This document shows, piece by piece, positions 1-17,055 of a stretch of DNA of 32,000 nucleotides. The translations under genes were made by a program, and so were the position numbers. Below the pieces are notes generated by a model. That model saw only the letters and a program-made list of their open reading frames with translations. It was not told the origin of the DNA and did no database searches. The stretch is from Candidatus Lokiarchaeum ossiferum (GTDB lineage Archaea > Asgardarchaeota > Lokiarchaeia > Sigyniarchaeales > Promethearchaeaceae). Position 1 is the first letter of the stretch, and the number at the start of each line of letters is the position of its first letter. The DNA lies in NCBI GenBank assembly GCA_025839675.1, contig CP104013.1, forward strand, positions 5,460,001-5,492,000, given 5' to 3'.

Positions 1-1255
1 TATCATTGTCCATCTGCCACGTGGCTGTATTATGTTTAAGTAATCGGAACTCAGAAAATGTTTTAAACAAATTTTGAAAATGAGGTGCGGACATTTCTGA
101 AACTTGACTGGAAACTTTATTTGTCGAGAAATCAGAAAGAATTACACTATTCTCATTGATTAATAAGAGTGCTTGAGCATTAATTTCCTGTGCAAACCAT
201 TTCAATTGTTCGCGCAAAATCTCCCTATTTGGGGACATGAGCGAAATCCCTTCTGAAAAAGACTTATTGAGACTATAAGCGTTAAAGATTGATGTGTTAA
301 AAAATTTGACTCGAAAATCCTTGGAATTTTCAAGTATTCGATTTTTAAGCAATTCAATTTTTTTTGTTAACTCATGATCTTCTTTGATATCAGGATCAGC
401 TTTGTGAAAATTAACAACAATTGGTGGGTGTTGTTTAAAGGATCGAAATATATTTAAAATTTGAAAGAGAAATTCTAAGGCTTCCACATAACGCGTTTCA
501 TCTCTGATATCAATTAAAAAATTTAATAAATTGGTATCGAAGAGATAAAGATCGGCTTGTTTCAGAAAATTCTGCCGGTATTTTAGCTGTCCGCCCACAT
601 CCCATTCGAGTAAACTTTGCCCCAACATTTGATCTTGGGAACGTTCGATTCCTTTAGTGGGCTTTATTCCTGTTAGTTCACTATATCGTTGCTTAATAGC
701 TCTTAGATAACTTGTCTTTCCGCTCGCATCCAAACCAGTAAATAATAATTTCAATTTTCGTGCATTGCTTATCGGTGAATTTACGTTTGAAACAAATTTA
801 TCCACTTTTTCTAAAAGTTCCACCATAAATTCTTTTGAATCTTTTAGATAATTATCATGAGTTATTTTATCTGCTGTTTCTGAGAAATATATTGATAAAT
901 CCTTCATATTCTCATATAAGAACGCTGCATGATTTTCATCAACAAGAATTGAAATTGTGGAGGCTTTTGCTTGGCCGCGAGCTTCCTTATCGTGGATAAG
1001 GAAGAAATATGTTAATCCGGTGAGACATAAATCTGGAAATGGTAAGATACCGAAATATTTGATGGAATCAAAAACTTGCCCTTCTTGGTAGATTTGTTCT
1101 CCCATGAGAAGTGAAATAGTTTTCATTGAAATGTTGATCTTATGGATTTCTGACATGTCTTCTGGAAAAGTTACCACGGGGGTGGGACCTTCATACTCAA
1201 AGACGGCAAAAATCAAACCCTTTATTATATTCGTTAACGATATTGCAGTTCCCAA
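1..1255 (-). CDS. Rag/Gtr-like small GTPase with N-terminal longin-like domain and C-terminal roadblock-like domain (partial; C-terminus runs off the window)
   Basis: Absent from the supplied ORF track because it is open to the window edge. I translated the minus strand by hand and found no stop from 1255 down to position 2. An in-frame TGA lies just upstream of a TTG at 1255..1253. N-terminal part: IIKGLIFAVFEYEGPTPVVTFP...KTISLLM...YFGILPFPDLCLTGLTYFF...STISILVDENHAAFLY. GTPase motifs: G1 LLFTGLDASGKTS, G3 WDVGGQ, G4 FHKAD, G5 NTSIFN. Roadblock-like stretch: EINAQALLLINENSVILSDF. It is collinear with the 514-aa paralogue at 18137..19681. Confidence 0.75.
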   Translation of the reverse strand, partial: MGTAISLTNIIKGLIFAVFEYEGPTPVVTFPEDMSEIHKINISMKTISLLMGEQIYQEGQVFDSIKYFGILPFPDLCLTGLTYFFLIHDKEARGQAKASTISILVDENHAAFLYENMKDLSIYFSETADKITHDNYLKDSKEFMVELLEKVDKFVSNVNSPISNARKLKLLFTGLDASGKTSYLRAIKQRYSELTGIKPTKGIERSQDQMLGQSLLEWDVGGQLKYRQNFLKQADLYLFDTNLLNFLIDIRDETRYVEALEFLFQILNIFRSFKQHPPIVVNFHKADPDIKEDHELTKKIELLKNRILENSKDFRVKFFNTSIFNAYSLNKSFSEGISLMSPNREILREQLKWFAQEINAQALLLINENSVILSDFSTNKVSSQVSEMSAPHFQNLFKTFSEFRLLKHNTATWQMDND

Positions 1256-3322: not shown

Positions 3323-5968
3323 ATGTTAACTTTTAATACTCTATTTAGAGCCAAAGATCGAATTTATTTACCATCATTGGTAGGTATCGTGATTACTATT
3401 TCTTTATTTACGGGAATGAACTTCTTTTTTGAAGCCAGTCAAAAGGCAAATTTTTCTGAGACATTTAAGATGTGTAATGACATAGAGATTTACCAAGATC
3501 ATCCCATATTTTATTTGGATGGGACTCGATGTTGTTATCCTAATACGAAATTCTGCGAAATTTTTCGGGAGAATGATGTCATAGCCAATGAACTTGTTGA
3601 AAATTCTTTATTAAAAATTAAAGGTATGTATCGAATGGGGGCAATAATGTTTGATAGAGGCTATTTCGTTCTAAATGATTACAAACAAAGAATCCATCCA
3701 AATTTAACAAAAACAATTGATTATTTCTTATCTATGAACGCAACGAGAGTACAATTTGAATTTTTTGAAACAGAATTCTATCATTCTGAGACTTTTCACG
3801 ATTATTTTAAAATTCTTAATGGGAGATTTCCTCGCAATAATTCAGAATTTTTAATTGATTATACTACTGCTTTAAAATATGGGGTCAAAGTAGGTGAAAA
3901 TCGAAACTTTACTTTCCGAACTGGAAATATTTGGCAAGCTGAACAAGATTTAGTTGTTCCAAATTTAATAGATTACTCTCTTCAAAATGCATCAATATGT
4001 GGGATTTATTTACCTCGGTATTATGAAACCAAATTTAATGATGAAACATTTTACTACTCATATACATTTGAAGATTTTCAGAATGGTTGTATATACAAAC
4101 AAAAGATGGTAGAAAACCCTATTATTTTTTGTTGGTCCAATTTTTCTTTACCCAATTGGAATCATCAAGTAGCAAGTTTAATCCAATCAATGGAGGATGA
4201 TCCTGCTTACACCTTGCGTTATTGGAATGGAGAGTTTTTTATTAATGGGGCTACAGGTTCTTCGTATGTAATTTTTTATCAGCGAGAAACTATTGATTAC
4301 AAAAAACTAAATCAAGAATCAGCCCAAATAGTTCAGCAAATTCGATACATTGGCAAATATTTACCTTTTCATTCAAGCATAAGAAGTTATGTTGAATACA
4401 CAATGGGAAAATATTTGACTGATATCCAAAATTTTCGCACAAATCTTTTTTTAATGAGTATTCCGATGATCTTAGGTTCCATTTTAATAGGTTCAAGCTT
4501 TCAAAAATCTTTAGAAAACAAGCGATTAAGGGAAGTCTTTCTATTAAGATGCAAAGGGGTTGATCTAAAACATATTAATAGACAATTATTGATGGAAATT
4601 ATTTCTTTAATTGCAATATCATGGATTTTTGGTGTTTTACTTGGAAATCTCACTTTCTATTTATTTTATGCCATTATGGGTGATTTGTTTTTAGATCCGA
4701 CTTTCAATGGCATTATATATCCCAATATCTCAGCAAATCCTTTAATTCTATCCGCGGTAATATGTTGCCTTGAAACTATAGTGATTTATTATCCTTTACG
4801 CAAAAAAATTAAAAAACAACACTTTAATGAGCTAAATCATTCCCTAAATTCTCCATTTGCAAATTCAGACGGTTTCGAGGTTCTTTATGATAAAATCCAA
4901 AAAACAAGTAGAAGTAAGTGCTTCATAAAACAACTATTTTATATGAAGAGAAAAAAATCTCAAAATATTTCTGAAAACTTGCGTAGAGCGGATTCTGAAG
5001 ATGTTATATATGATTATGGGCCTGATCATGATTCTAAAATTGATCTTTTTAAGATCAAATCGATTTTTGTCAAGCGATTGATAACTTTGGCACTTGTATT
5101 CATCCCATTGTTTTTCATATCAATCACAATATATAGCTATTTTTTTCCAATCCCTGATAATTTAAAACAGTCTGCAACATTTTTTAAACAAAATCCATTC
5201 ATGCTTGAAATTATTTTGATGAGTTCTATGGTATTGATGACCGTAAGTTTTTCAAGATTCATATTTCAAGACAGTCCATCTCTTTTTATTCGAGTCGTTA
5301 AGTGGATTTCGCATATTTTTGTAAAGGATTATGACACTCTTATCTCTATGGAAATAATTGGCAAAAAGAAATGGCTCAATAATTTAATTCTATATTCCAG
5401 TTTTATTAGCCTATTAGTATTCACAAACTTTATGTTTCAGAATAATGTTATGCTCTTCAATACATTCGAGTATTATGCTAATCAAAAGTTTGAATTTGTC
5501 TATGAATTGTTGCCCAATGATAAAGACGCATTGAAATTCTATAATTTTTTCTTCAAATTTTTAATTGTATCAAGTTTTTTTATCTTAATTGAATCTGCAA
5601 TTTTGCAAATCCTCCTCTTTAAAGAAAATCATATCATAAACCAGAGTCTAATGACTCGAGGGTTGACAACTTCAAAGTTATATAGAATTCTCCTTTTTGA
5701 ATCCATTATCATTTTTCTTTTAGGTTCTTTAATAGGCATAATTATTGGGGTTTTCTATGGGTTATTGACTTCCTATAATAGTTTTTTAAGATGGAATATT
5801 GTATATCTGCAAGATTTGGATCTCATTATTGATTTTGTGTCTCTAATTTCTCTGGAAATTGGGAAAATCTTGGTCATTATTTTAGGTGTTTTTGTTTTAA
5901 GTACTTCCCTCTTCTTTATTTATGCAATTAATCGAAAAAAACTCACATCTCATCCAAATGCATTGTGA
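3323..5968 (+). CDS. Double FtsX-module (MacB/YbbP-like) integral membrane protein with large extracytoplasmic domain, paralogue 1
   Basis: 881 aa. N-terminal TM (LPSLVGIVITISLFTGMNFFF) is followed by a roughly 340-aa hydrophilic Cys- and sequon-containing domain. FtsX-type module 1: KRLREVFLLRCKGVDLKHINRQLLMEIISL plus TMs. Then a cytoplasmic linker and FtsX-type module 2: ENHIINQSLMTRGLTTSKLYRILLFESIIIFLLGSLIG. An SD-like GGAGTGA lies 7 nt upstream of the ATG. Confidence 0.75.
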   Translation: MLTFNTLFRAKDRIYLPSLVGIVITISLFTGMNFFFEASQKANFSETFKMCNDIEIYQDHPIFYLDGTRCCYPNTKFCEIFRENDVIANELVENSLLKIKGMYRMGAIMFDRGYFVLNDYKQRIHPNLTKTIDYFLSMNATRVQFEFFETEFYHSETFHDYFKILNGRFPRNNSEFLIDYTTALKYGVKVGENRNFTFRTGNIWQAEQDLVVPNLIDYSLQNASICGIYLPRYYETKFNDETFYYSYTFEDFQNGCIYKQKMVENPIIFCWSNFSLPNWNHQVASLIQSMEDDPAYTLRYWNGEFFINGATGSSYVIFYQRETIDYKKLNQESAQIVQQIRYIGKYLPFHSSIRSYVEYTMGKYLTDIQNFRTNLFLMSIPMILGSILIGSSFQKSLENKRLREVFLLRCKGVDLKHINRQLLMEIISLIAISWIFGVLLGNLTFYLFYAIMGDLFLDPTFNGIIYPNISANPLILSAVICCLETIVIYYPLRKKIKKQHFNELNHSLNSPFANSDGFEVLYDKIQKTSRSKCFIKQLFYMKRKKSQNISENLRRADSEDVIYDYGPDHDSKIDLFKIKSIFVKRLITLALVFIPLFFISITIYSYFFPIPDNLKQSATFFKQNPFMLEIILMSSMVLMTVSFSRFIFQDSPSLFIRVVKWISHIFVKDYDTLISMEIIGKKKWLNNLILYSSFISLLVFTNFMFQNNVMLFNTFEYYANQKFEFVYELLPNDKDALKFYNFFFKFLIVSSFFILIESAILQILLFKENHIINQSLMTRGLTTSKLYRILLFESIIIFLLGSLIGIIIGVFYGLLTSYNSFLRWNIVYLQDLDLIIDFVSLISLEIGKILVIILGVFVLSTSLFFIYAINRKKLTSHPNAL

Positions 5969-5973
5969 GTTAA

Positions 5974-5989
5974 TTTTTTCCTTTTTTTT
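5974..5989 (+). terminator. Oligo-T tracts (T6, T8) directly after paralogue 1 stop
   Basis: ttttttccttttttttc begins 6 nt after the TGA at 5966-5968. Oligo-T termination is established for archaeal RNAP. Confidence 0.45.
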
Positions 5990-6222
5990 CCGGACTTCCC
6001 CTATTTCGTTTAAATCAATTTCTTTCATGTGGAGAATGGATACTTTTATAAAAATCACAAAACATGAAAATTGAAAATACAACAGATTAGTACCTATATA
6101 TAAACCGAGCTAATGTTTTTTGTGAAAGTTCATTTTTTTCTCCATCAATAAGTCAGAACTCAAGCAAATCTTTTTTTAATTAAACACCCAAAATAAAATA
6201 ATCTTTCAAAAATGTGAACATC

Positions 6223-8895
6223 ATGTCAAATTTTTCTTCCCTAGCTTCAATTAAAGATAAAATTTCCATCCCCACTTTAGTAGGAGTTGTGATTTCCATC
6301 TCAATGTTTGCGGGGTTAAATTTTTTTTTTGAAGCAAGCCAAAAGGCAAATTTTAATGAGGCTTTTACGAATTGTAATGATATCGAAATCTATCATGAGC
6401 ATGAAATTTGGTATGATGGAGGAGGGGGACGTCATTGTTTTCCAAACCTTCAATTTACTGAGACATTCAAGGCAACTGATTCAAAAGTTAATTCTTTAAT
6501 AAAAAATTCGTCCTTAAAAATTTCAAATGTGAGTAAATCTGCTTCAATTGTGTTTGACAAGGGTTATCTTGTGATAGACCAATATAATCTCACGGGATGT
6601 GAAAATGCTATGAGTAAGGAGGAATATTTGTTGCTAATGAATTCTACTATTACAGGATTTGAATTTTTTGAGTCCAATTTTTATCAAACAGATACTTTTC
6701 ATGATTGTTTTAAGGTTATTGAAGGAGAAACACCAAAAAATTATTCACAATGTTTGATTGACTATACAACAGCTCTAAAATTAGGTTTAAAGGTGGGCGA
6801 ATGTCATAATATTATAATGCGGGAGGGAAGCATTTGGAAAAATCCTTTACTTAATTTTCCCGTAAATACTATGATGCGAGATTATCTTATTGAAAATATG
6901 ACCATTTGTGGAATTTATCTCCCCAAATCCTATAAAACTCAATTTAACGAAGAGTTCTATAAATTTTCATACAATTATGAGGATTATCAAAGTGGAAAAA
7001 ATTATTCTCAAACATTTATTGAAAATCCCGTGATTTTCTGTTGGTCTAACTTCTCGATGCAGGGACAAAATTCTCCTGCTCACTTTTTAATTGAATCCAT
7101 GATGAAGGATCCCGAAAATTTTCAATGGAGAACTGGGCGATTTTTTATTAATGGGGCTACAGGAACGGCATATACTTATTTGTATGAACGCGGAACTCTT
7201 GACTATCAAAATATAAATCAGGATTCAAAACAAATTTATATGCAAATCTATAACATTTCAAACCATCTTCCCTTCTATACTGGAATCCGAAGTTATGTGG
7301 AGTTTACAATGCGACAATTTTTGACAGATATGCAAGATTTTCGCACCAAACTGTTCTATATGAGTCTTCCAATGATGATTTCTACTATTCTTATTGGTTC
7401 CAGCTTTCAGAAATCCATTGAAAAAAAGCGTCTTAATGAACTTTTTTTATTACGTTGTAAAGGAATGAGCAAAAAAAATATTAGATCCGTAATTGCTACA
7501 GAAGGTTTGATATTTATTCTAATTTCCTGGGTATTAGGAATAATATTCGGATGTGTGTTTTTCTATCTTTATTATTTTTTTATGGGAGATCTCTTTCTTA
7601 CCAATAATTATGGAAATTTTATGGTTCCATCAATATCTTCTACTCCTCTGATCATTTCAGGGATAATTTGTAGCCTTGAAGTTGCCCTTATTTATTTTCC
7701 ACTTTGGAAAAAAATTAAAAATCAACACTTCAATGAATTAAATCTAGCCCTTAATTCTCCCTTTGCAGATTCAGAAGAACATTTTGATGAAGTTCAGCAT
7801 AAAATTGATGTAAGCTTAAGGAAAAATCGCACAAATAAAAAAATTTTCACTTCTAAATCCAAAAAAAACTCTTTTCAGAATGATTTAAATCATCATCCAA
7901 AAAATGATTCAACATCCAATCAAACCCCTAAAGACCTTGGTTTAGAAAATGAGATGGGATTTCAACTTCCTAGAATAAAACCCATTTTGTATAAATCCAT
8001 TAAATTTTTAGCCATTGTATTTCTCCCGCTAATTTTTTGTCTTTTAACTGTACTGAGTTATTTTATTCCCATGCCGGATCAATTTTCAACTTTTTCTCAT
8101 TATTTTAAATCCAACTCTTTCATTCTTGAATTAATAATGATGAGCTCTTTAGTATTAATCACTGTCAATTTTTCTCGAATAATATTTCAAGAAAATCCCT
8201 CTATTTTTATTAGAATTGTACGCCGCATTTCTCATTTGTTTGTGAAAGATTATGACAATCTCATCTCGTTAGAATTAGTCGGTAAACGAAAATGGGTGAA
8301 TTATTTAATTTTGGTCTCGAGTTTTACAGGTCTCGTGGTTTTGACAGATTTCATGATGCAAAATAATTTGAAAATTCTCACGATTCTAGAGAATTTTCTA
8401 AATCTGACATACAATGTTGGACTGGATGCACTCCCAGGGGATAACATTTTTGATTCTTTCAATTTTTATCAGCTGTTCTTTAGATTTTTAGTCGTTTCCA
8501 GTTTTTTCATAATCATTGAATCAGCATTGTTGCAAATATTGCTCTACAAAGAAAATCACATTTTAAACCAAAGCCTTAGTATACGGGGACTTACCAATTC
8601 TACGCTATATAAAATATTATTCTTTGAATCGGTTATTGTTTTTATTTTTGGAATAGTAATCGGATATATCATAGGAATTGGATTTGGTCTACTTCTATCC
8701 TTTATCAATTTCTTGAAATGGCAACTCGAATATTTCCAGCATCTTGAAATGACAGTAAGTTTTGAATCTTGTATTGGGTTAGAAAATGGGAATATTTTGT
8801 TACTCCTTCTTAGTATTTTCATATTGAGCATTTCTCTTTTCTTTATTTATGTAATTAATCGAAGGAAGCTAACTCCACGGCCAAACGAATTGTAG
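6223..8895 (+). CDS. Double FtsX-module integral membrane protein, paralogue 2
   Basis: Collinear with paralogues 1 and 3. Shared motifs: EASQKANF, ICGIYLP, FCWSNFS, FINGATG, KRLNELFLLRCKGMS, HFNELN.ALNSPFADSEE, ENHILNQSLSIRGLT. I prefer ATG 6223 (MSNFSSLASIKDKISIP) over the track GTG 6214 because it gives the same N-terminal length as the other two copies. Confidence 0.75.
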   Translation: MSNFSSLASIKDKISIPTLVGVVISISMFAGLNFFFEASQKANFNEAFTNCNDIEIYHEHEIWYDGGGGRHCFPNLQFTETFKATDSKVNSLIKNSSLKISNVSKSASIVFDKGYLVIDQYNLTGCENAMSKEEYLLLMNSTITGFEFFESNFYQTDTFHDCFKVIEGETPKNYSQCLIDYTTALKLGLKVGECHNIIMREGSIWKNPLLNFPVNTMMRDYLIENMTICGIYLPKSYKTQFNEEFYKFSYNYEDYQSGKNYSQTFIENPVIFCWSNFSMQGQNSPAHFLIESMMKDPENFQWRTGRFFINGATGTAYTYLYERGTLDYQNINQDSKQIYMQIYNISNHLPFYTGIRSYVEFTMRQFLTDMQDFRTKLFYMSLPMMISTILIGSSFQKSIEKKRLNELFLLRCKGMSKKNIRSVIATEGLIFILISWVLGIIFGCVFFYLYYFFMGDLFLTNNYGNFMVPSISSTPLIISGIICSLEVALIYFPLWKKIKNQHFNELNLALNSPFADSEEHFDEVQHKIDVSLRKNRTNKKIFTSKSKKNSFQNDLNHHPKNDSTSNQTPKDLGLENEMGFQLPRIKPILYKSIKFLAIVFLPLIFCLLTVLSYFIPMPDQFSTFSHYFKSNSFILELIMMSSLVLITVNFSRIIFQENPSIFIRIVRRISHLFVKDYDNLISLELVGKRKWVNYLILVSSFTGLVVLTDFMMQNNLKILTILENFLNLTYNVGLDALPGDNIFDSFNFYQLFFRFLVVSSFFIIIESALLQILLYKENHILNQSLSIRGLTNSTLYKILFFESVIVFIFGIVIGYIIGIGFGLLLSFINFLKWQLEYFQHLEMTVSFESCIGLENGNILLLLLSIFILSISLFFIYVINRRKLTPRPNEL

Positions 8896-8897
8896 AA

Positions 8898-8907
8898 TTT
8901 TTTTTTT
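8898..8907 (+). terminator. T10 tract 3 nt after paralogue 2 stop
   Basis: tag aa tttttttttt gtg. Confidence 0.5.
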
Positions 8908-9024
8908 GTGATATTTCAATTTTCATTATTGTAATAATTTTAAAATTGAGACTGAATTGATAAGTTCATGAATATCAAGACTAAATAATGGACGGAGAAA
9001 GATATTTTTTTTAATAATTATCGC

Positions 9025-9033
9025 AAATTATAT
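9025..9033 (+). promoter_or_regulatory. TATA-box-like element about 28 nt upstream of the paralogue 3 ATG (would imply a leaderless or near-leaderless mRNA)
   Basis: aaattatat is centred about 28 nt before ATG 9057. No SD-like sequence lies between them. Spacing fits the archaeal TATA-to-TSS distance. AT-rich background makes chance matches likely. Confidence 0.3.
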
Positions 9034-9056
9034 GTATCAGAATATCGTGGTTCACA

Positions 9057-11711
9057 ATGGTCAAATTTAGCGGAATCTTTAAGTTAAAAAGCAAAATCTA
9101 TCTCCCAACCTTAATTGGGATTGTCCTCTCAGTTTCAATGTTTGCAGGATTAAACTTCTTTTTTGAAGCAAGTCAAAAAGCCAATTTTGATGAAGCTTTT
9201 TCCAACATATCCGATATTGAAGTATATCATAGCCATGAAATATGGTATGATGGAGGTAGGCATTGTTATCCGAACACGAAATTCAGTGAATTATTTACAG
9301 AAAATGATCAAAAAATTCAGTCACTAATGGAAAATTCAACTTTGAAGATTAAAGAATTTTCAAGATCGAGTTCTGTCATTTTTGACAGAGGATATTTAGT
9401 CTTAGATGAATATCAGCTTTATGGATGTCAAAATGCTACCGATGTTCTGGATTATTTTTTTTTGATGAACTCTACACTGTTAGGTGTTGAATCCTTTGAA
9501 TCAAGTTTTTATCAATCGGAGTATTTTTCGACTTATTTCAAGCTGATTGAGGGACATGTTCCTGAAAATTCATCCGAATATTTAATTGATTATATTACAG
9601 CTCTGAAATATGGTCTAACCGTTGGAGATATGAAAAATTTTACAATAAGAGAAGGAAATGTTTGGCGTAATCCTGATCCTACTATAAGAGTTGCTCCTCG
9701 GATGCTTGATTATTCCTTTGAAAATTTGTCTATATGCGGAATTTATTTGCCGAAGTATTACAAAGCCAAATTTAATCAAGAATTTTTTTCTTTCTCATAT
9801 AATTTTGAAGATTACCAAAATGGAAAAAAATATACTCAAGAATTTGTTGAAAAGCCCATTTTTTTTTGTTGGTCAAATTTTTCGAATCCTACTTGGGATA
9901 ATCCAGTGAATTCTTTAATTCAAGCAATGAAAAATAATTCTGCAAATCGTAATTGGAAAAATGGTCGTTTTTATTTAAATGGGGCAACAGGATCTGCCTA
10001 TATATATCTGTATGAACGTGATACTCTTAAATACAGGAATATTAATACTGATTCAAAACAAATTTATGTGCAGATGCGAAATATCTCGAGTAATTTACCT
10101 ATTCGTGTGGAAATCCGCAGTTACGTTGAATTTACAATGAGACAATTTTTATCCGAAATACAAGATTTTCGCACTAAACTATTTTTCATGAGTATTCCAA
10201 TGATATTTTGCGCGATTCTAGTGGGATCGAGTTTACAAAAATCGCTTGAAAAAAAACGACTTAATGAAATTTTCTTACTCAGATGTAAGGGTATGAGTAT
10301 TAGAAGTATAAATCTTCATATTTTTAAGGAAATATCTATTGTGATAATTTTTTCTTGGATTTTAAGTATTCTATGTGGTGTTTTGACATTTTATTTATAT
10401 TACTTATTCATGGGGAATATTTTTATCAAATCAACCTTTGAAGGTTTCTTAGTGCCTTACATTTCAGTAAATCCTTTAATCATCTCGTTAATCATATGTA
10501 CCTTTGAAGTATTAATTATTTATTTACCGTTGCGCAAAAAAATCAAGAATCAACATTTCAATGATCTGAATCAATCTTTAAATTCACCCTTCGCTGATTC
10601 TGAAGAATTTTTTGACAATGTACAACAAACCATTCAAGTAAGTATAAATAGAAGGAATCGTCTGAAGCAATTTTTTGTAAAAAGAGCACGAATAAAGAAG
10701 AAAATTAATTCCATGACTGGAGAAAATTCAACTAATTCCCAAAATTGGAAAGACGTTGACCTTTATTATGATCCTGAAGAATATCACTTCCGATTCAAAT
10801 CATTTCTTTTTAAGACAGTCTTAATCTTTGTTATTGCGATCTTCCCATTGTTTTTAATAAGTGTAACAATTCTCAGCTATTCTATGACGTTACCAGATAA
10901 TTATAGCGGATATATTACGTTTTGTAAGAAAAACCCATTTTTACTTGAAATTCTTTTGATGTGCTCGATGGTGTTAAATACGGTGGGGTTATCTCGAATT
11001 TTATTCCAAGATAATCCATCCTTATTTACACGATCTGTAAAATATTTCTCACATTTCATTGTAAAAGATTTTGACACGCTAATTTCAATGGAATTGATTG
11101 GCAAAAAAAAATGGTTAAATATTTTAATATTATTTTCAAGTTTTATTGGGCTCCTAGTTTTTACGAATTTCATTTATCAAAGTAATATTATTTACTCAAC
11201 TCTTATGCAAAATAATGGTAGGGTTCATTATTTTGTTGATTTAGAAGCGAATCAAAGTGTAGTGTTAACTTCTCTTGAATTTTATAACTTCTTCTTTAAG
11301 TTTTTAATTTCTTCAAGCCTCTTCATTTTAGTAGAGTCTGCGATTTTACAAATGCTTCTGTTCAAGGAAAATCATATTTTAAATCAAAGCTTGATGATGC
11401 GAGGTTTAACCACTTCAATTTTGTACAAAATCTTGTTTTTTGAATCTGCCATAATTTTCCTGTTTGGAACCATTATAGGGATTATAATTGGAATTGGTTT
11501 TGGGCTACTTGTATCTTTCAATAATTTCCTCAAATGGCAATGGGAATATTTCCAATATATGGATCATTCAATCGGATTTGGATCCATTATCCATCTTGAG
11601 GTAGGAAAAGTATTGTTAATTATTTTAACATTATTTTTCCTTAGTGTTTCACTCTTTTTTATCTATGTCATTAACCGGAAAAAGCTTACACCTCGTCCAA
11701 ATGAGTTATAA
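9057..11711 (+). CDS. Double FtsX-module integral membrane protein, paralogue 3
   Basis: 884 aa, collinear with paralogues 1 and 2. Shared motifs: KRLNEIFLLRCKGMS, HFNDLNQSLNSPFADSEE, ENHILNQSLMMRGLT, and the C-terminus INRKKLTPRPNEL. Confidence 0.75.
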   Translation: MVKFSGIFKLKSKIYLPTLIGIVLSVSMFAGLNFFFEASQKANFDEAFSNISDIEVYHSHEIWYDGGRHCYPNTKFSELFTENDQKIQSLMENSTLKIKEFSRSSSVIFDRGYLVLDEYQLYGCQNATDVLDYFFLMNSTLLGVESFESSFYQSEYFSTYFKLIEGHVPENSSEYLIDYITALKYGLTVGDMKNFTIREGNVWRNPDPTIRVAPRMLDYSFENLSICGIYLPKYYKAKFNQEFFSFSYNFEDYQNGKKYTQEFVEKPIFFCWSNFSNPTWDNPVNSLIQAMKNNSANRNWKNGRFYLNGATGSAYIYLYERDTLKYRNINTDSKQIYVQMRNISSNLPIRVEIRSYVEFTMRQFLSEIQDFRTKLFFMSIPMIFCAILVGSSLQKSLEKKRLNEIFLLRCKGMSIRSINLHIFKEISIVIIFSWILSILCGVLTFYLYYLFMGNIFIKSTFEGFLVPYISVNPLIISLIICTFEVLIIYLPLRKKIKNQHFNDLNQSLNSPFADSEEFFDNVQQTIQVSINRRNRLKQFFVKRARIKKKINSMTGENSTNSQNWKDVDLYYDPEEYHFRFKSFLFKTVLIFVIAIFPLFLISVTILSYSMTLPDNYSGYITFCKKNPFLLEILLMCSMVLNTVGLSRILFQDNPSLFTRSVKYFSHFIVKDFDTLISMELIGKKKWLNILILFSSFIGLLVFTNFIYQSNIIYSTLMQNNGRVHYFVDLEANQSVVLTSLEFYNFFFKFLISSSLFILVESAILQMLLFKENHILNQSLMMRGLTTSILYKILFFESAIIFLFGTIIGIIIGIGFGLLVSFNNFLKWQWEYFQYMDHSIGFGSIIHLEVGKVLLIILTLFFLSVSLFFIYVINRKKLTPRPNEL

Positions 11712-11998: not shown

Positions 11999-12988
11999 TT
12001 ACAAAATGCTTTTCAAAATTTTAATAAATGAAATAACTTCTTCTCGTTTAAAGGATCCAGTTCCTTTCTGCTTCATAAGCAAGATATAAAGAGGGTCTTG
12101 GGTTTTTTCAATATTAAATTGATCGATATAAAATTCATTATCACCCCGTTCCACTATCATTTCAGTTACACCTTCATCTTGCTTTTCCAAAGTATCACTT
12201 AGGGTTAAGAAATATGGCGTACTGTTTGCAAGAATTTGTTTTGAGGTATTGTCTGCAAAATGTTGTCCAATAACCAATGAATTGGAATCCAATACTATTG
12301 ATGCATTAGAATTGATCTTACCTGAAAATTCTTTAATCGTTTTATCTAAAAGTTCGGATTGGGGGTAAAGTTGGAGCAATATTTCACTAAAGACACTGAT
12401 AATCGACCATAGATCAAAGATCGTTGTTTCTGTAAAGGAAACATTAAATTCTTCATTAACAATTTTTCTAACGTTCTCTTTAATCTCAGAAATAAATCCC
12501 TTTAAGTGAACACCTTTTTCCTTGACATAATCTGGATCATTTTTATGGAAAAGGATGTAAATGAAAGGTTCAATATTCAAGGTTTTAAATTGTTTTATTA
12601 CATCAGCAAAATATGACAAAGATTCAGCAATACGTGGTTTATCTTGAACATCTATCATATAGATACACACCGAAGTATTATCGAAGTACTTAGTTGGTTC
12701 TTTCAAATACGCTATACGATATCTCTCCTGCCCCCCAAGATCCCATTCCGATATTTGTTTTCCTAAGTAATTGAAGATCGCTCGTTGGGCTTGTCGAGTT
12801 GGCTTTAGCATGGCAATTTGAGAAATCTCTCTCTGAAGTAGTTTGATTATTGTCGTTTTTCCTGAATTATCCAACCCTGTGAAAAGAATCTTTTCTTGTA
12901 CTTGGCGAATCTCTGATTGTTTTTGCTTCTCTTTCAGTGTTTCTCCTAAATCTTGAGCAAACTGTGCGTCTTCTTTATTATTTTTCAT
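11999..12988 (-). CDS. Rag/Gtr-like GTPase with C-terminal roadblock domain (full Rag architecture)
   Basis: G1 ILFTGLDNSGKTT, G3 WDLGGQERYR, G4 FHKNDPD, G5 TETTIFD. The segment TTIFDLWSIISVFSEILLQLYPQSELLDKTIKEFSGKINSNASIVLDSNSLVIGQHF aligns by eye with my recollection of human RagA: [56 protein letters not shown]. Confidence 0.8.
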   Translation of the reverse strand: MKNNKEDAQFAQDLGETLKEKQKQSEIRQVQEKILFTGLDNSGKTTIIKLLQREISQIAMLKPTRQAQRAIFNYLGKQISEWDLGGQERYRIAYLKEPTKYFDNTSVCIYMIDVQDKPRIAESLSYFADVIKQFKTLNIEPFIYILFHKNDPDYVKEKGVHLKGFISEIKENVRKIVNEEFNVSFTETTIFDLWSIISVFSEILLQLYPQSELLDKTIKEFSGKINSNASIVLDSNSLVIGQHFADNTSKQILANSTPYFLTLSDTLEKQDEGVTEMIVERGDNEFYIDQFNIEKTQDPLYILLMKQKGTGSFKREEVISFIKILKSIL

Positions 12989-13207: not shown

Positions 13208-13744
13208 TTGAAGTTAATTTTAATGGGAAATCCATCTTCAGGTAAAAGTTCAATACTATATCGATTGTTTTCAAGAGAATTTCAATTGGCGTACATGCCT
13301 ACAATCGGAATGGATTATTATGAAAAATTTTTCTCAAAATATAATATTCTTGCTAATTGTCTCGATTTTGGAGGGATTGATGTGATTGATGTCATAAATT
13401 CTCCATTTTTTAAGGAAGTTGATGTTGTGTTATTTGTTTGCGATATATTTGATAACTACAATCAAAAAAGTTTTTTGAAATTATCTCATTCAATAAAAAA
13501 TCAGAATTCTCAAAAGGTGCACTTTATTATTGTTCGGAATAAATGCGATTTAAATCCTATAACAAATGGAGAATCTCAAAAAATCGACCGATTTTGTGGA
13601 GTTAATGAATTTAAATATATTCACTTATCAGCTAAAACTATGCAAAATTTTGATCTTCTAAAGAAAGCATTATTTTCATCTTTTTCAGACCAAAAAGAAC
13701 AAATTTCTTGTCTAAATTGTTCTACGATTTCAGATTACAATTAA
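13208..13744 (+). CDS. Ras/Rab-like small GTPase, catalytic Gln absent
   Basis: G1 LMGNPSSGKSS, switch I YMPTIGMDY, G3 LDFGGID (DxxG present, Gln replaced by Ile), G4 VRNKCDL, G5 LSAKT. The TTG start at 13208 is needed to encode beta-strand 1 (KLILMG). The next ATG would start inside the P-loop, and an in-frame TAA lies 37 nt upstream. Confidence 0.75.
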   Translation: MKLILMGNPSSGKSSILYRLFSREFQLAYMPTIGMDYYEKFFSKYNILANCLDFGGIDVIDVINSPFFKEVDVVLFVCDIFDNYNQKSFLKLSHSIKNQNSQKVHFIIVRNKCDLNPITNGESQKIDRFCGVNEFKYIHLSAKTMQNFDLLKKALFSSFSDQKEQISCLNCSTISDYN

Positions 13745-14841: not shown

Positions 14842-15059
14842 ACTTTTTTTTCTCGATTCTATATGTAATATATTTAAATGATTTTAAAAAATTCATCTAA
14901 AATATTTCTAAAATAATTTTAAATATACGACTATTTCAATCGAATTGAATTAGTTCTTTTGATATATTAAATTTATAAGGAAATTATCCATATATCTTGA
15001 GTTTAAAATGGTTTAATTTTCATTAATAAAATTCATTGTGGTAATATTAGCTGATTAAA

Positions 15060-16355
15060 ATGGCGAAAAAGAAATCCAGTAAAAAGAAAGCGTCTTCATC
15101 TTCGAAGAAATCGACCGTCAAAAAGAAACCTGTTCCAAAAGCAAAAAAAACTTCCAAATCTAAAGCTGAACTAGAAGCAAAGAAGAAAGCTGAACTTGAA
15201 GCGAAGAAGAAAGCTGAACTTGAAGCGAAGAAGAAAGCTGAACTTGAAGCAAAGAAGAAAGCTGAACTTGAAGCGAAGAAGAAAGCTGAACTTGAAGCGA
15301 AGAAGAAAGCTGAACTTGAAGCGAAGAAGAAAGCTGAACTTGAAGCAAAGAAGAAAGCTGAACTTGAAGCAAAGAAGAAAGCTGAACTTGAAGCAAAGAA
15401 GAAAGCTGAACTTGAAGCGAAGAAGAAAGCTGAACTTGAAGCAAAGAAGAAAGCTGAACTTGAAGCAAAGAAGAAAGCTGAACTTGAAGCAAAGAAGAAA
15501 GCTGAACTTGAAGCGAAGAAGAAAGCTGAACTTGAAGCAAAGAAGAAAGCTGAACTTGAAGCGAAGAAGAAAGCTGAACTTGAAGCAAAGAAGAAAGCTG
15601 AACTTGAAGCGAAGGAGAAAGCTGAACTTGAAGCGAAGGAGAAAGCTGAACTTGAAGCGAAGGAGAAAGCTGAACTTGAAGCGAAGGAGAAAGCTGAACT
15701 TGAAGCTGTCGCTTCAAAACAAGATAAAGAGAATAAAGGTGTTGATAAAATGGGTCAATATAAAGAAAAAGAAGAAAAACAAGAATATACTACTAATGTT
15801 ATTGTGAATTCTGAGGATTTGACTACAGAATTCTTAACTGATTGGAGATGGCATGTTACCATACCTTTCCATGAAATTAACGAAGAAGTTGCCTTATTAG
15901 AAACTAAAGGTGATAGATTAAGCGAATATATTATTCAAAGTCTTAAAATGCACGCTTTCAGTGGTTATAATAAAATTGGATATTTCCCTGAAGATACTCA
16001 TGCTATATTGTGGAATGAAAAAGAAAATCTTTTCTCTTTAATTCTAACAAAGGATTATGAAATTATAGACAAAAATTATGACATAAATAAATGCCACATC
16101 TTTATGGATGAAGAAAACATGAATGAATTTATCAAATCTCAAAAGACAAAGAAGAAAATTGTCCATAAAAGTGAACGTACATTAGGATTACGAGAAAAAG
16201 AAGCCTATGATCTAGCAGATTATATAAAAACACTACCGAATATCATATATGGTCGTAATGATCTGGATTTAACCGAAGATGAGCGTTTTGCAATTAAAAT
16301 CTTGATAACAAAATTGCGTCCAAAGATACTAGGGTTGTATCATTTAATTGATTAA
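15060..16355 (+). CDS. Repeat protein: polybasic N-tail, (KAELEAKK)x22.7 ER/K-type helical spacer, about 190-aa unique C-terminal domain
   Basis: 431-aa ORF. N-terminus: MAKKKSSKKKASSSSKKSTVKKKPVPKAKKTSKSK. Then 181 aa of an exact 8-residue repeat, followed by the non-repetitive WRWHVTIPFHEINEE...LSEYIIQSLKMHAF...KIGYFPEDTHAILWNEKENLFSLILTKDY.... The downstream gene starts about 20 nt later on the same strand. Confidence 0.8.
   Translation: MAKKKSSKKKASSSSKKSTVKKKPVPKAKKTSKSKAELEAKKKAELEAKKKAELEAKKKAELEAKKKAELEAKKKAELEAKKKAELEAKKKAELEAKKKAELEAKKKAELEAKKKAELEAKKKAELEAKKKAELEAKKKAELEAKKKAELEAKKKAELEAKKKAELEAKKKAELEAKKKAELEAKEKAELEAKEKAELEAKEKAELEAKEKAELEAVASKQDKENKGVDKMGQYKEKEEKQEYTTNVIVNSEDLTTEFLTDWRWHVTIPFHEINEEVALLETKGDRLSEYIIQSLKMHAFSGYNKIGYFPEDTHAILWNEKENLFSLILTKDYEIIDKNYDINKCHIFMDEENMNEFIKSQKTKKKIVHKSERTLGLREKEAYDLADYIKTLPNIIYGRNDLDLTEDERFAIKILITKLRPKILGLYHLID
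15162..15706 (+). repeat. 24-bp perfect-phase tandem repeat, 22 full units plus a 17-nt partial (consensus aaagctgaacttgaagcRaagRag)
   Basis: Counted unit by unit. Variable positions are only nt 12 (a in unit 1), nt 18 (gca/gcg, synonymous; pattern a g g a g g g a a a g a a a g a g a g g g g) and nt 22 (aag to gag, K to E, in units 19-22 only). The repeat is in frame with the CDS at 15060. Confidence 0.97.
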
Positions 16356-16377
16356 TTTTTTTTAAAAACTAAATTTG

Positions 16378-17055
16378 ATGATAATCATGAAAAATGTACC
16401 CATATCCGATGAATTATTCAATAGAGTTATGAAATATCAAGAAGATAAAAGCCTTGAAGCCTTTGAACCCGTCGCAAAACGAATGATGGGGATCTATGAT
16501 CTTTCTCCGACTCAAGAAAAGAAAATAATGTTGATTGGGGAAGCAGGTGTTGGAAAATCGACTATCCGACAAACCTTTTTCAACTATGACGATCCAAAAA
16601 AAATGCTTGAAAATTCTCTAGAGCCAACCCGTGGAGTTGAAAATTTCAACTATATTATTTCTGACATTAATCTCCTTGTGTTGGATACTGCGGGTCAAGA
16701 AATAGAAGAATTACTTGAAAAAGATCCTGAAATGCATTTTAGCGACGTTGATGCTGTAATATATGTCGTAGATGCTTCCAAATATCAACAAGAGAATATG
16801 AAAATCTATGATTTACTCTATAGAATTAACAAAACTGCGAAATTTTATTCTCCTGAAGTGAAAATTTCGCTATACTTACATAAAATCGATTTGATCAAAG
16901 AAGATGCTGTAAAAACCTTTAAATTCCGTGCGAATTCTCGTCATAAAGGATATGAGTTAACAGAAAAAATTGAAATTCCCATGTTTTTTACTAGCATTGA
17001 AAAGGAGTTTATTAAGCAATTAGAACTCGCATTCTTAAATCTTTTTTATTTATAA
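16378..17055 (+). CDS. Rag/Gtr-like small GTPase, GTPase domain only (no roadblock C-terminal domain)
   Basis: G1 LIGEAGVGKST, switch I EPTRGVE, G3 LDTAGQE, G4 LHKIDL (Rag-type HKxD), G5 FFTSIEKE (compare Rag FRTSIWDE). The protein ends 18 residues after G5. Start is ATG 16378 (track TTG 16375 also possible), 19-22 nt after the upstream stop. Confidence 0.75.
   Translation: MIIMKNVPISDELFNRVMKYQEDKSLEAFEPVAKRMMGIYDLSPTQEKKIMLIGEAGVGKSTIRQTFFNYDDPKKMLENSLEPTRGVENFNYIISDINLLVLDTAGQEIEELLEKDPEMHFSDVDAVIYVVDASKYQQENMKIYDLLYRINKTAKFYSPEVKISLYLHKIDLIKEDAVKTFKFRANSRHKGYELTEKIEIPMFFTSIEKEFIKQLELAFLNLFYL

Follow-up and report, generated by a model that had tools for sequence, protein, structure and literature searches.

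Asgard genomes each carry small GTPases of eukaryotic type by the dozen. Genome layout rarely points to their partners (Tran et al. 2024, PMC10933270). Within the 32,000-nt stretch of Candidatus Lokiarchaeum ossiferum DNA that we analysed (the window), a gene for a repeat-containing protein (gene 1; locus tag: NEF87_004662) lies directly upstream of a gene for a Rag-like GTPase (gene 2; locus tag: NEF87_004663). This arrangement raises two questions: what the long repeat of gene 1 does, and whether the gene 1 product is a partner of the GTPase. The initial annotation had described a two-gene unit; both ORFs are indeed real and lie on the same strand, and in the NCBI annotation both products (gene 1: GenBank protein id UYP48377.1) are listed as “hypothetical.” Coordinates of the features are given in Table 1.

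Table 1. Features of the gene pair (positions within the window).
Feature	Position	Strand	Details
Gene 1 CDS, 431 aa + stop	15060..16355	+	NEF87_004662; ORF identical to P0011/UYP48377.1
N-terminal tail, residues 1-34, Lys/Ser-rich, polybasic, net +15, predicted disordered	15060..15161	+	composition
Coding tandem array of a 24-bp unit (22.7 copies, 181 aa), candidate charged single alpha-helix	15162..15706	+	TRF, 97% matches
Variable low-complexity linker, residues 216-245, ~30 aa	15705..15794	+	little conservation among orthologues; pLDDT 26-35
Conserved orphan head, residues 246-431, ~186 aa, net acidic	15795..16352	+	67-96% identity over 5 genomes
31-nt spacer	16356..16386	+	T8 run (16356-16363) right after gene 1 stop, then SD-like GATGA (16377-16381)
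Gene 2 CDS, 222 aa + stop	16387..17055	+	NEF87_004663; P0002 100% identical

We identified orthologues of gene 1 in four further genomes (L016, L001, L002 and L006). The N-terminal tail is 44% K and 26% S, and compared with the window sequence it is identical in protein and 99% identical in DNA in L016, and 91% identical in L001. Its basic character had been recognised before, with a length given as 35 aa. Based on sequence composition, no hydrophobic segment was seen in the tail, which therefore lacks a transmembrane anchor or signal peptide. The repeat is followed by 216 unique residues; these had been described as a unique domain of about 190 aa and instead divide into the variable linker and the conserved head.

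The repeat consists of 18 KAELEAKK units, four KAELEAKE units and one partial unit, with a composition of 35% K, 28% E, 25% A and 13% L (62% charged residues, net charge +13). Its length of 181 aa, the single Leu per octad and the E(i)-K(i+4) pattern are exactly as first described. Charged single alpha-helices are marked by a long (≥40 aa) E/K/R-rich stretch with opposite charges at i/i+4 and i/i+3 and by the absence of a heptad or hendecad hydrophobic seam, and the repeat displays both properties. At i/i+4 there are 89 opposite-charge pairs and no like-charge pairs, and at i/i+3 there are 36 opposite-charge versus 8 like-charge pairs; with a period of 2 × 4, a continuous i/i+4 salt-bridge ladder would take in all E and K residues. 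The resultant vector of the Leu residues is 0.02-0.05 at periods of 3.5, 3.6 and 3.67 but 1.0 at a period of 4.0. Judged from this pattern, a canonical coiled-coil seam cannot form, as had been argued earlier, and the repeat fits an ER/K-type charged single alpha-helix, predicted to be monomeric, rather than a coiled coil.

The contour length of such a helix would be ~27 nm, a value that is plain arithmetic (181 × 0.15 nm) and that the initial annotation had also given. ER/K helices have a persistence length of ~15 nm. The term “rigid stalk” was therefore too strong, since 27 nm corresponds to ~1.8 persistence lengths and the length also differs among strains. The array comprises 22.7 copies in the window, 17.7 in L016 and ~16.6 in L001, giving contour lengths of about 20 to 27 nm across strains. 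This polymorphism provides a natural experiment on spacer length, and the variation argues against a precise ruler.

In gene 2, a ~42-aa N-terminal helical extension precedes a Rag/Gtr-like G domain with the conserved motifs GEAGVGKS, the T in EPTRG, DTAGQ (a canonical G3), HKID and TSI. An HKxD G4 together with a TSI G5 is a hallmark of Rag GTPases. The Pfam profile Gtr1_RagA matched gene 2 (5e-19) over profile positions 1-160 of 232 only, and the chain terminates with the final helix of the G domain (FFTSIEKEFIKQLELAFLNLFYL*; residues 206-221 of 222). A PDB sequence search returned Gtr1/RagA as the best matches, and Foldseek analysis of the AlphaFold model (pLDDT 75.8) likewise placed Gtr1/RagA/RagC G domains first (E 1.8e-12), with Rag, Rab, Arf and Rho G domains making up the best 50 structural matches. 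By these comparisons of sequence and predicted structure, gene 2 encodes a G-domain-only GTPase closest to Gtr1/RagA that lacks the C-terminal roadblock (dimerisation) domain of Rag/Gtr proteins, in agreement with the initial annotation. The accompanying statement that the other three GTPases in the window carry this domain is wrong for one of them, a 178-aa Ras/Rab-like GTPase (13208..13744) that likewise stops shortly after G5. Extension beyond G5 is confined to the 329-aa and 514-aa GTPase proteins of the window. The neighbouring 329-aa gene is an orthologue of LokiRagO. Searching the literature for LokiRagO and for the locus tags gave no reports, and Rfam gave no matches over the whole window.

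Gene 2 had been placed 19-22 nt downstream of gene 1. The GTPase gene does follow directly; however, that spacing relied on TTG 16375 or ATG 16378, whereas the start used in the annotation and kept in all orthologues is ATG 16387, with the SD-like GATGA 5 nt ahead of it. Wherever gene 1 occurs (five genomes), the next gene downstream is the GTPase orthologue. Because these genomes are closely related and four of the five have the entire neighbourhood in common, adjacency is weak evidence except in L006, where downstream synteny differs. The window, L001 and L002 have the T-run after the gene 1 stop codon; at T8-T10 in the L. ossiferum clade, it could act as an archaeal terminator, which makes co-transcription uncertain. 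L006 has no such run, and in its short spacer the GTPase ATG is preceded by AGGTGA, a good Shine-Dalgarno sequence. Purifying selection acts strongly on both genes, and the head has the same dN/dS as the GTPase (0.05-0.11, at dS 1-2). Asgard GTPase genes are generally not found in operons with regulators (Tran et al. 2024, PMC10933270), so the conserved pair is unusual; as the organism is in culture and its genomes are closed, the pair offers a concrete, testable candidate partner.

We tentatively favour the reading that gene 1 encodes a genus-restricted spacer protein whose head probably partners with the Rag-like GTPase in a positioned module. The gene 1 product would be cytoplasmic and bipolar, a spacer protein confined to the genus Lokiarchaeum. 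Its disordered +15 tail would stick to a polyanionic surface, which may be an anionic membrane, nucleic acid or a cytoskeletal filament. The solvent-exposed charged single alpha-helix would serve as a semi-flexible spacer, its length being set by the copy number of the 24-bp repeat and subject to fast expansion, contraction and homogenisation. After the short linker, the conserved acidic head would most likely do the work of the protein, and it would probably contact the G-domain-only GTPase as an effector, adaptor or regulator. The pair, if co-expressed, would then form a GTPase module kept at a distance from the tail-bound surface. A more specific version, rather improbable in our estimation, is that the orphan head is a GTPase-binding module, either new or diverged beyond recognition, and that the length-tunable helix and polybasic anchor keep the GTPase at 20-27 nm from the surface of a membrane or filament. 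If so, the pair would act as a positioning device, comparable to Ragulator or to a tether and specific to Asgard archaea; it would also be the first case in Lokiarchaeia of a small-GTPase partner paired with its GTPase in the genome.

The alternative that survives best, although we consider it somewhat unlikely, is that the two genes have unrelated functions: gene 1 would encode a general polyanion binder (of chromatin, RNA or the cytoskeleton), and the GTPase gene would adjoin it by inherited synteny. The N-terminal half of gene 1, comprising tail and repeat, is strongly basic, and single helices elsewhere bind such ligands: that of CAF-1 KER binds DNA via its excess of basic residues (PMC10335832), and that of INCENP binds microtubules (PMC4571873). 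The neighbourhood common to four of the five genomes and the T-run directly after the gene 1 stop codon are likewise consistent with independence, as are GTPase orthologues that occur apart from gene 1. Against the partner reading, the 3' end of gene 1 is missing from the 51 nt ahead of the GTPase gene in L007 (70% identity), and the same N-extended G-domain-only GTPase family occurs at 30-46% identity in other archaeal contigs with no gene 1 upstream. However, the pair is kept in L006 despite a different downstream gene and with a short, SD-bearing spacer free of a T-run, and Pfam detected no nucleic-acid-binding domain in any of the five heads. Were the genes independent, a lineage-specific charged-helix protein of modest interest would remain.

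Less probable is a second alternative, according to which the repeat is a coding minisatellite, a tolerated, expansion-prone low-complexity insert that has no specific structural role and in the cell is perhaps disordered in part. DNA identity among the units is 96%, and their copy number shifts between near-identical strains; concerted evolution is visible in the arrays, with edges positionally conserved and the interior homogenised. The L001 orthologue also has an in-frame TAA within its repeat. Against this, L001 and L002 retain the A/E/K/L octad in the protein despite diverged DNA units and even with a differing period, every full-length copy keeps at least 16 units, and the 181 aa in the window are free of proline, glycine and frameshifts. 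The A/E/K/L composition is, moreover, strongly helix-forming. We regard the tolerated insert as improbable and retain the reading of the repeat as a spacer.

The head is an orphan domain. A word-indexed search of 5.8 billion proteins, run with a single sequence and with a five-sequence profile, returned the P0001 cluster alone, and an exhaustive HMMER search over 1.84 billion representatives returned P0001 plus P0010, a repeat protein that we rejected as a spurious match. Scans of GTDB genomes and JGI metagenomes for the head were empty. The head family is thus a single 50%-identity cluster within one genus-level clade. Pfam (at E ≤10), NCBIfam and PADLOC yielded nothing usable for the head, and a profile search against PDB sequences gave no relevant match. 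The AlphaFold model of the head, built from a two-sequence alignment, reached a pLDDT of 37.5, and Foldseek found no match to it at E ≤0.001; the best match, to PadR (E 0.77), was discarded because a model of this confidence is unusable for such an assignment.

The initial annotation had proposed that the head has a roadblock/longin fold and could supply in trans the C-terminal domain that the GTPase lacks. The pair would then be a split Rag, or a stalked module like Ragulator or MglB/MglA. This we consider very unlikely. The model accounts for a Rag-like GTPase that ends after its G domain, and its order of putative regulator before GTPase matches mglB-mglA. Furthermore, the low-confidence head model shows a strand-helix(-helix)-3-strand core that threads as alpha-beta-beta-alpha-beta-beta-beta if EEVALLET is a strand. 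However, a Pfam search of all five heads at a cutoff as loose as E ≤10 yielded neither Robl_LC7 nor longin, the PDB sequence search was negative, Foldseek with the low-confidence model gave no match, and the ~186-aa head has about 95 residues of helices beyond a roadblock-sized core. An hhalign comparison of the head with roadblock and longin profiles, built locally from neighbouring Rag-like proteins, also gave no match; this comparison was underpowered, as genuine roadblock pairs reached only 1.7-14% probability. The distribution of the two families weakens the proposal further. Compared with the head, the family of G-domain-only GTPases has an earlier origin and a wider distribution, which argues against a recent split, and since the head is limited to one clade, the GTPase was not split off from this head. 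Distant GTPase homologues (L004) have a gene for a 588-aa protein upstream, and this protein does not resemble the head.

Gene 2 resembles Rag/Gtr proteins and Asgard Rag-like GTPases (LokiRagO, PDB 8yl2; Tran et al. 2024) in its G domain and in its HKxD and TSI motifs; unlike Rag/Gtr proteins, it has the N-terminal helical extension in place of a C-terminal roadblock dimerisation module. In Ragulator-Rag (with the LAMTOR1 anchor and roadblock dimers) and in MglB-MglA, a small GTPase is combined with a separately encoded, surface-anchored partner, as we propose for the gene pair. In bacterial mglBA, the partner gene lies upstream of the GTPase gene. Unlike Ragulator and MglB, the gene 1 head has no detectable roadblock, the anchor is polybasic rather than lipidated, and neither known system has a long helical spacer. 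We rejected assignment to an MglB-MglA module, as the G domain of gene 2 is Rag-like with a canonical DTAGQ G3, no MglA occurs among its best 50 structural matches, and the head has no roadblock signal.

Long helical repeats that contain Leu are often coiled coils, but a dimeric or trimeric coiled coil is extremely unlikely here, as the Leu period is exactly 8 with almost no resultant at 3.5-3.67, hydrophobic residues occupy ≤25% of a/d positions in any register, and the Ala stripe faces the opposite side from the Leu/Lys stripe.

The repeat matched the TolA model TIGR02794 at 66.9 bits, above the model cutoff, over profile positions 130-264 of 362, which correspond to domain II. TolA of the Tol-Pal system resembles gene 1 in having an N-terminal anchor, a long Ala/Glu/Lys-rich helical part (domain II) and a globular end. 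However, gene 1 lacks a transmembrane anchor, the TolA C-terminal domain (Pfam found no TolA_C match, and neither the TolA anchor nor domain III is present) and TolQR/Pal neighbours, and its product is predicted to be cytoplasmic and is archaeal. We therefore discarded TolA homology, the match being compositional and confined to domain II.

The closest likeness of the repeat is to the ER/K single alpha-helices of myosin VI/X/7a, caldesmon, INCENP and CAF-1 KER, with which it has in common dense i/i+4 and i/i+3 Glu-Lys pairs, the absence of a seam and a position as spacer between two functional parts; as in the DNA-binding CAF-1 KER, its net charge is positive. It differs from them as a perfect octad derived from a 24-bp VNTR in an archaeon, with 25% Ala, 13% Leu and only 62% charged residues. 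If helical as predicted, it is among the cleanest natural single-helix designs. The CAF-1 KER helix, at 90 aa, has been called the longest described (PMC10335832), and the predicted helix of gene 1 would be about twice as long.

In the closed 6,035,313-bp genome of Candidatus Lokiarchaeum ossiferum B-35, the products of gene 1 and gene 2 correspond to NEF87_004662 (UYP48377.1, identical) and NEF87_004663 (UYP48378.1, 100% identity); both are annotated as hypothetical, and we found no literature on either locus. The window setting is typical of Asgard archaea (30% GC; a TBP gene, an LRR protein, three FtsX-like permease paralogues and four small GTPases). The permease paralogues are three genes of ~880-893 aa in a row (3323-11711, +), each with FtsX-like permease domains. 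The observation in the initial annotation holds up and far exceeds chance, although two of its factual statements need correcting. Anchor, charged-helix spacer and head form a known kind of architecture, of which gene 1 is a new variant. As the best, still tentative working model, we propose that the gene 1 product would act as a bipolar spacer or adaptor, with the neighbouring Rag-like GTPase as the partner of its head.

Features of the gene 1-gene 2 unit in window coordinates
Feature	Residues	Position	Strand	Description
Gene 1 ORF		15060..16355	+	431 aa
Gene 1 tail	1-34			Lys/Ser-rich, K 44%, S 26%, net +15
Gene 1 repeat	35-215	15162..15706		24-bp tandem array, 22.7 copies, 97% matches
Gene 1 linker	216-245			K/E/Q-rich, variable
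Gene 1 head	246-431			conserved domain
Gene 2 start		ATG 16387	+	conserved and annotated; 222 aa, 31-nt spacer after gene 1

The gene 1 tail contains no hydrophobic segment, and the last 216 residues of the protein have a net charge of -8. The repeat consists of 18 KAELEAKK units, four KAELEAKE units and one partial unit, with DNA variation among units confined to GCA/GCG, AAG/GAG and one CTA/CTT. Both short and long reads went into the B-35 assembly (PMC9834061), which makes it unlikely that this 545-bp repeat arose as an artefact of assembly. Its composition is A/E/K/L only and strongly helix-forming, and its period of 8 (2 x 4) resolves it into four i/i+4 stripes: two alternating E/K ladders, one all-Ala and one alternating Leu/Lys. 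We counted 89 opposite-charge and 0 like-charge pairs at i/i+4, and 36 opposite-charge versus 8 like-charge pairs at i/i+3. The resultant vector of the Leu residues falls to 0.02-0.05 at periods 3.5, 3.6 and 3.67, against 1.0 at period 4.0, and hydrophobic occupancy of a/d positions is ≤25% in every heptad register, which excludes a canonical coiled coil on the geometry predicted from sequence. The single alpha-helix proposed in the initial annotation is thus a prediction well supported by charge pairs, the missing seam and composition. If helical, the repeat has a predicted contour length of 181 x 0.15 = 27 nm, as originally proposed; the proposed rigidity is too strong. With the persistence length of ER/K helices, near 15 nm, the repeat would be semi-flexible rather than a rigid rod, and its rms end-to-end distance as a spacer would be about 21 nm. 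The TolA model TIGR02794 matched the repeat above cutoff (66.9 bits) but only at profile positions 130-264, in the Ala/Glu/Lys-rich domain II of TolA; we regard this as compositional and architectural analogy, not homology. By a further analogy, with the CAF-1 KER helix, which binds DNA (PMC10335832), gene 1 might instead encode a GTPase-independent polyanion-binding protein, the main rival to the adaptor model and somewhat unlikely.

A survey of repeat number returned 17.7 copies in the 391-aa gene 1 product of a second closed Lokiarchaeum genome (CP163304.1, locus L016), with array flanks 95-99% identical to the window at the DNA level, and about 16.6 units in L001, which is more distantly related (dS about 1), against 22.7 in the window. 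Codon 2 of the unit is GCT in all window units and GCC in 14 of the 17 L016 units; in both arrays the first unit and the four closing KAELEAKE units keep their positions. The interior of the array thus undergoes concerted evolution, and its edges are stable. The orthologues at L001, L002 and L006 retain the A/E/K/L charge pattern despite the divergence of their units in DNA, and the L002 repeat has partly diverged in period as well (KKEAELEAKKAEA...). The repeat is a coding minisatellite that evolves fast but is constrained at the protein level: the helix-forming pattern is selected and the exact length (about 20-27 nm) is not. In the L001 orthologue (ENA contig ERZ26802894 NODE_315), unit 10 of the repeat carries an in-frame TAA (KAEA*DNK; L001 9773-9775), and gene callers consequently report two products, of 110 aa and 201 aa; the codon may be a genuine nonsense mutation, or the repeat may have been misassembled, as coverage is 8.7x.

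Strong purifying selection acts on the head (dN/dS 0.05-0.11 at dS 1.0-2.2), on par with the gene 2 GTPase, so gene 1 is a genuine gene. Word-indexed searches that covered 5.8 billion proteins, started from one sequence and from a five-sequence profile, identified no head homologues beyond one 90%-identity cluster containing the L. ossiferum protein and the L001 fragment. Exhaustive HMMER analysis of 1.84 billion representatives added only P0010, a spurious repeat protein, and neither GTDB genomes nor JGI metagenomes yielded a hit when scanned. The L002, L006 and L016 orthologues were recovered only via the adjoining GTPase; those of L002 and L006 are partial, with the contig end inside the repeat. 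By these searches, the head is a true orphan. There was no credible match in Pfam, NCBIfam, PADLOC or PDB sequences. The proposal that the head is a roadblock/longin domain acting in trans found no support and some evidence against it. At a cutoff as permissive as E≤10, none of the five orthologues matched either family. Foldseek returned no match for the AlphaFold head model, which was built from a two-sequence alignment and had a pLDDT of 37.5. Alignment with hhalign to the roadblock/longin domains of neighbouring Rag-like proteins also gave no match, and genuine roadblock pairs failed too, so that comparison lacks power.

Gene 2 lies directly downstream on the same strand, as first described, though not at the 19-22 nt spacing given then. 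Its product comprises a ~42-aa N-terminal helical extension (modelled with low confidence) and a complete G domain, with family-invariant motifs GEAGVGKS, T in EPTRG, DTAGQ, HKID and TSI. The best PDB sequence matches were Gtr1/RagA (E 5e-9), and the AlphaFold model (mean pLDDT 75.8 over the whole protein) best matched the G domains of Gtr1, RagA and RagC (E 1.8e-12), with the Lokiarchaeal RagA-like structure 8yl2 also among the matches. Because of these matches, and because the protein ends at the last G-domain helix, its description as Rag-like without a C-terminal roadblock domain is correct. That all three other window GTPases carry this domain is wrong: a 178-aa Ras/Rab-like GTPase (13208..13744, +) lacks it. 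The latter ends in ...QISCLNCSTISDYN, with two cysteines near the C-terminus that are probably not significant, since prenylatable tails are reported to be absent from Asgard Rab-like proteins. A 329-aa Rag-like GTPase (11999-12988, -) is a close full-length orthologue (E 4e-127) of 8yl2, titled [quoted passage not shown] In the gene 2 family alignment (A3), distant relatives (P0007-P0009, L009, L010) have a ~7-20-aa tail past the last G-domain helix; this tail is absent from the Lokiarchaeum-clade proteins, those paired with gene 1.

A GTPase orthologue lies immediately downstream of gene 1 in all five genomes carrying gene 1. This adjacency says little in four of them, because they share the whole neighbourhood; that in L006 is more informative (GTPase 59% and head 67-70% identical; an Rce1-like gene downstream replaces the AIR-synthase-like gene). 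The L006 spacer is 22 nt, with AGGTGA before the ATG and no T-run, whereas that of the L. ossiferum clade opens with T6-T10 right after the gene 1 stop (T8 in the window, T10 in L001, T6 in L002) and has an SD-like GATGA 5 nt before the gene 2 ATG. Oligo-T tracts act as terminators in archaea, so partial termination after gene 1, or a separate leaderless gene 2 transcript, is possible. The 51 nt available upstream of the L007 GTPase (70% identical) contain no gene 1 3' end. None of the GTPase homologues at 30-46% identity has gene 1 beside it, and those at L003, L009 and L010 stand alone; the G-domain-only family is therefore older than gene 1, which argues against a "split" origin of the pair yet allows gene 1 as a lineage-specific acquired partner. 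In one lineage, whose GTPase is 43% identical to gene 2, the place 13 nt upstream on the same strand is taken by an unrelated 588-aa protein (L004 4221-5987; L005 2-541) that has no Pfam domain and appears all-helical; this protein may be another partner, specific to that lineage, in the slot that gene 1 occupies elsewhere.

A ~100-nt intergenic block (14842-14945; L016 2576-2679, L001 9223-9322) adjoins the start of a divergent SLOG/LDcluster4 gene. It has no Rfam match and is 100% identical in L016 and ~95% in L001, while neighbouring genes have dS about 1. The block contains a long imperfect palindrome, with RNA fold z-scores of -2.9 (minus strand) and -2.4 (plus strand), and may be a conserved regulatory element or 5'-UTR hairpin.
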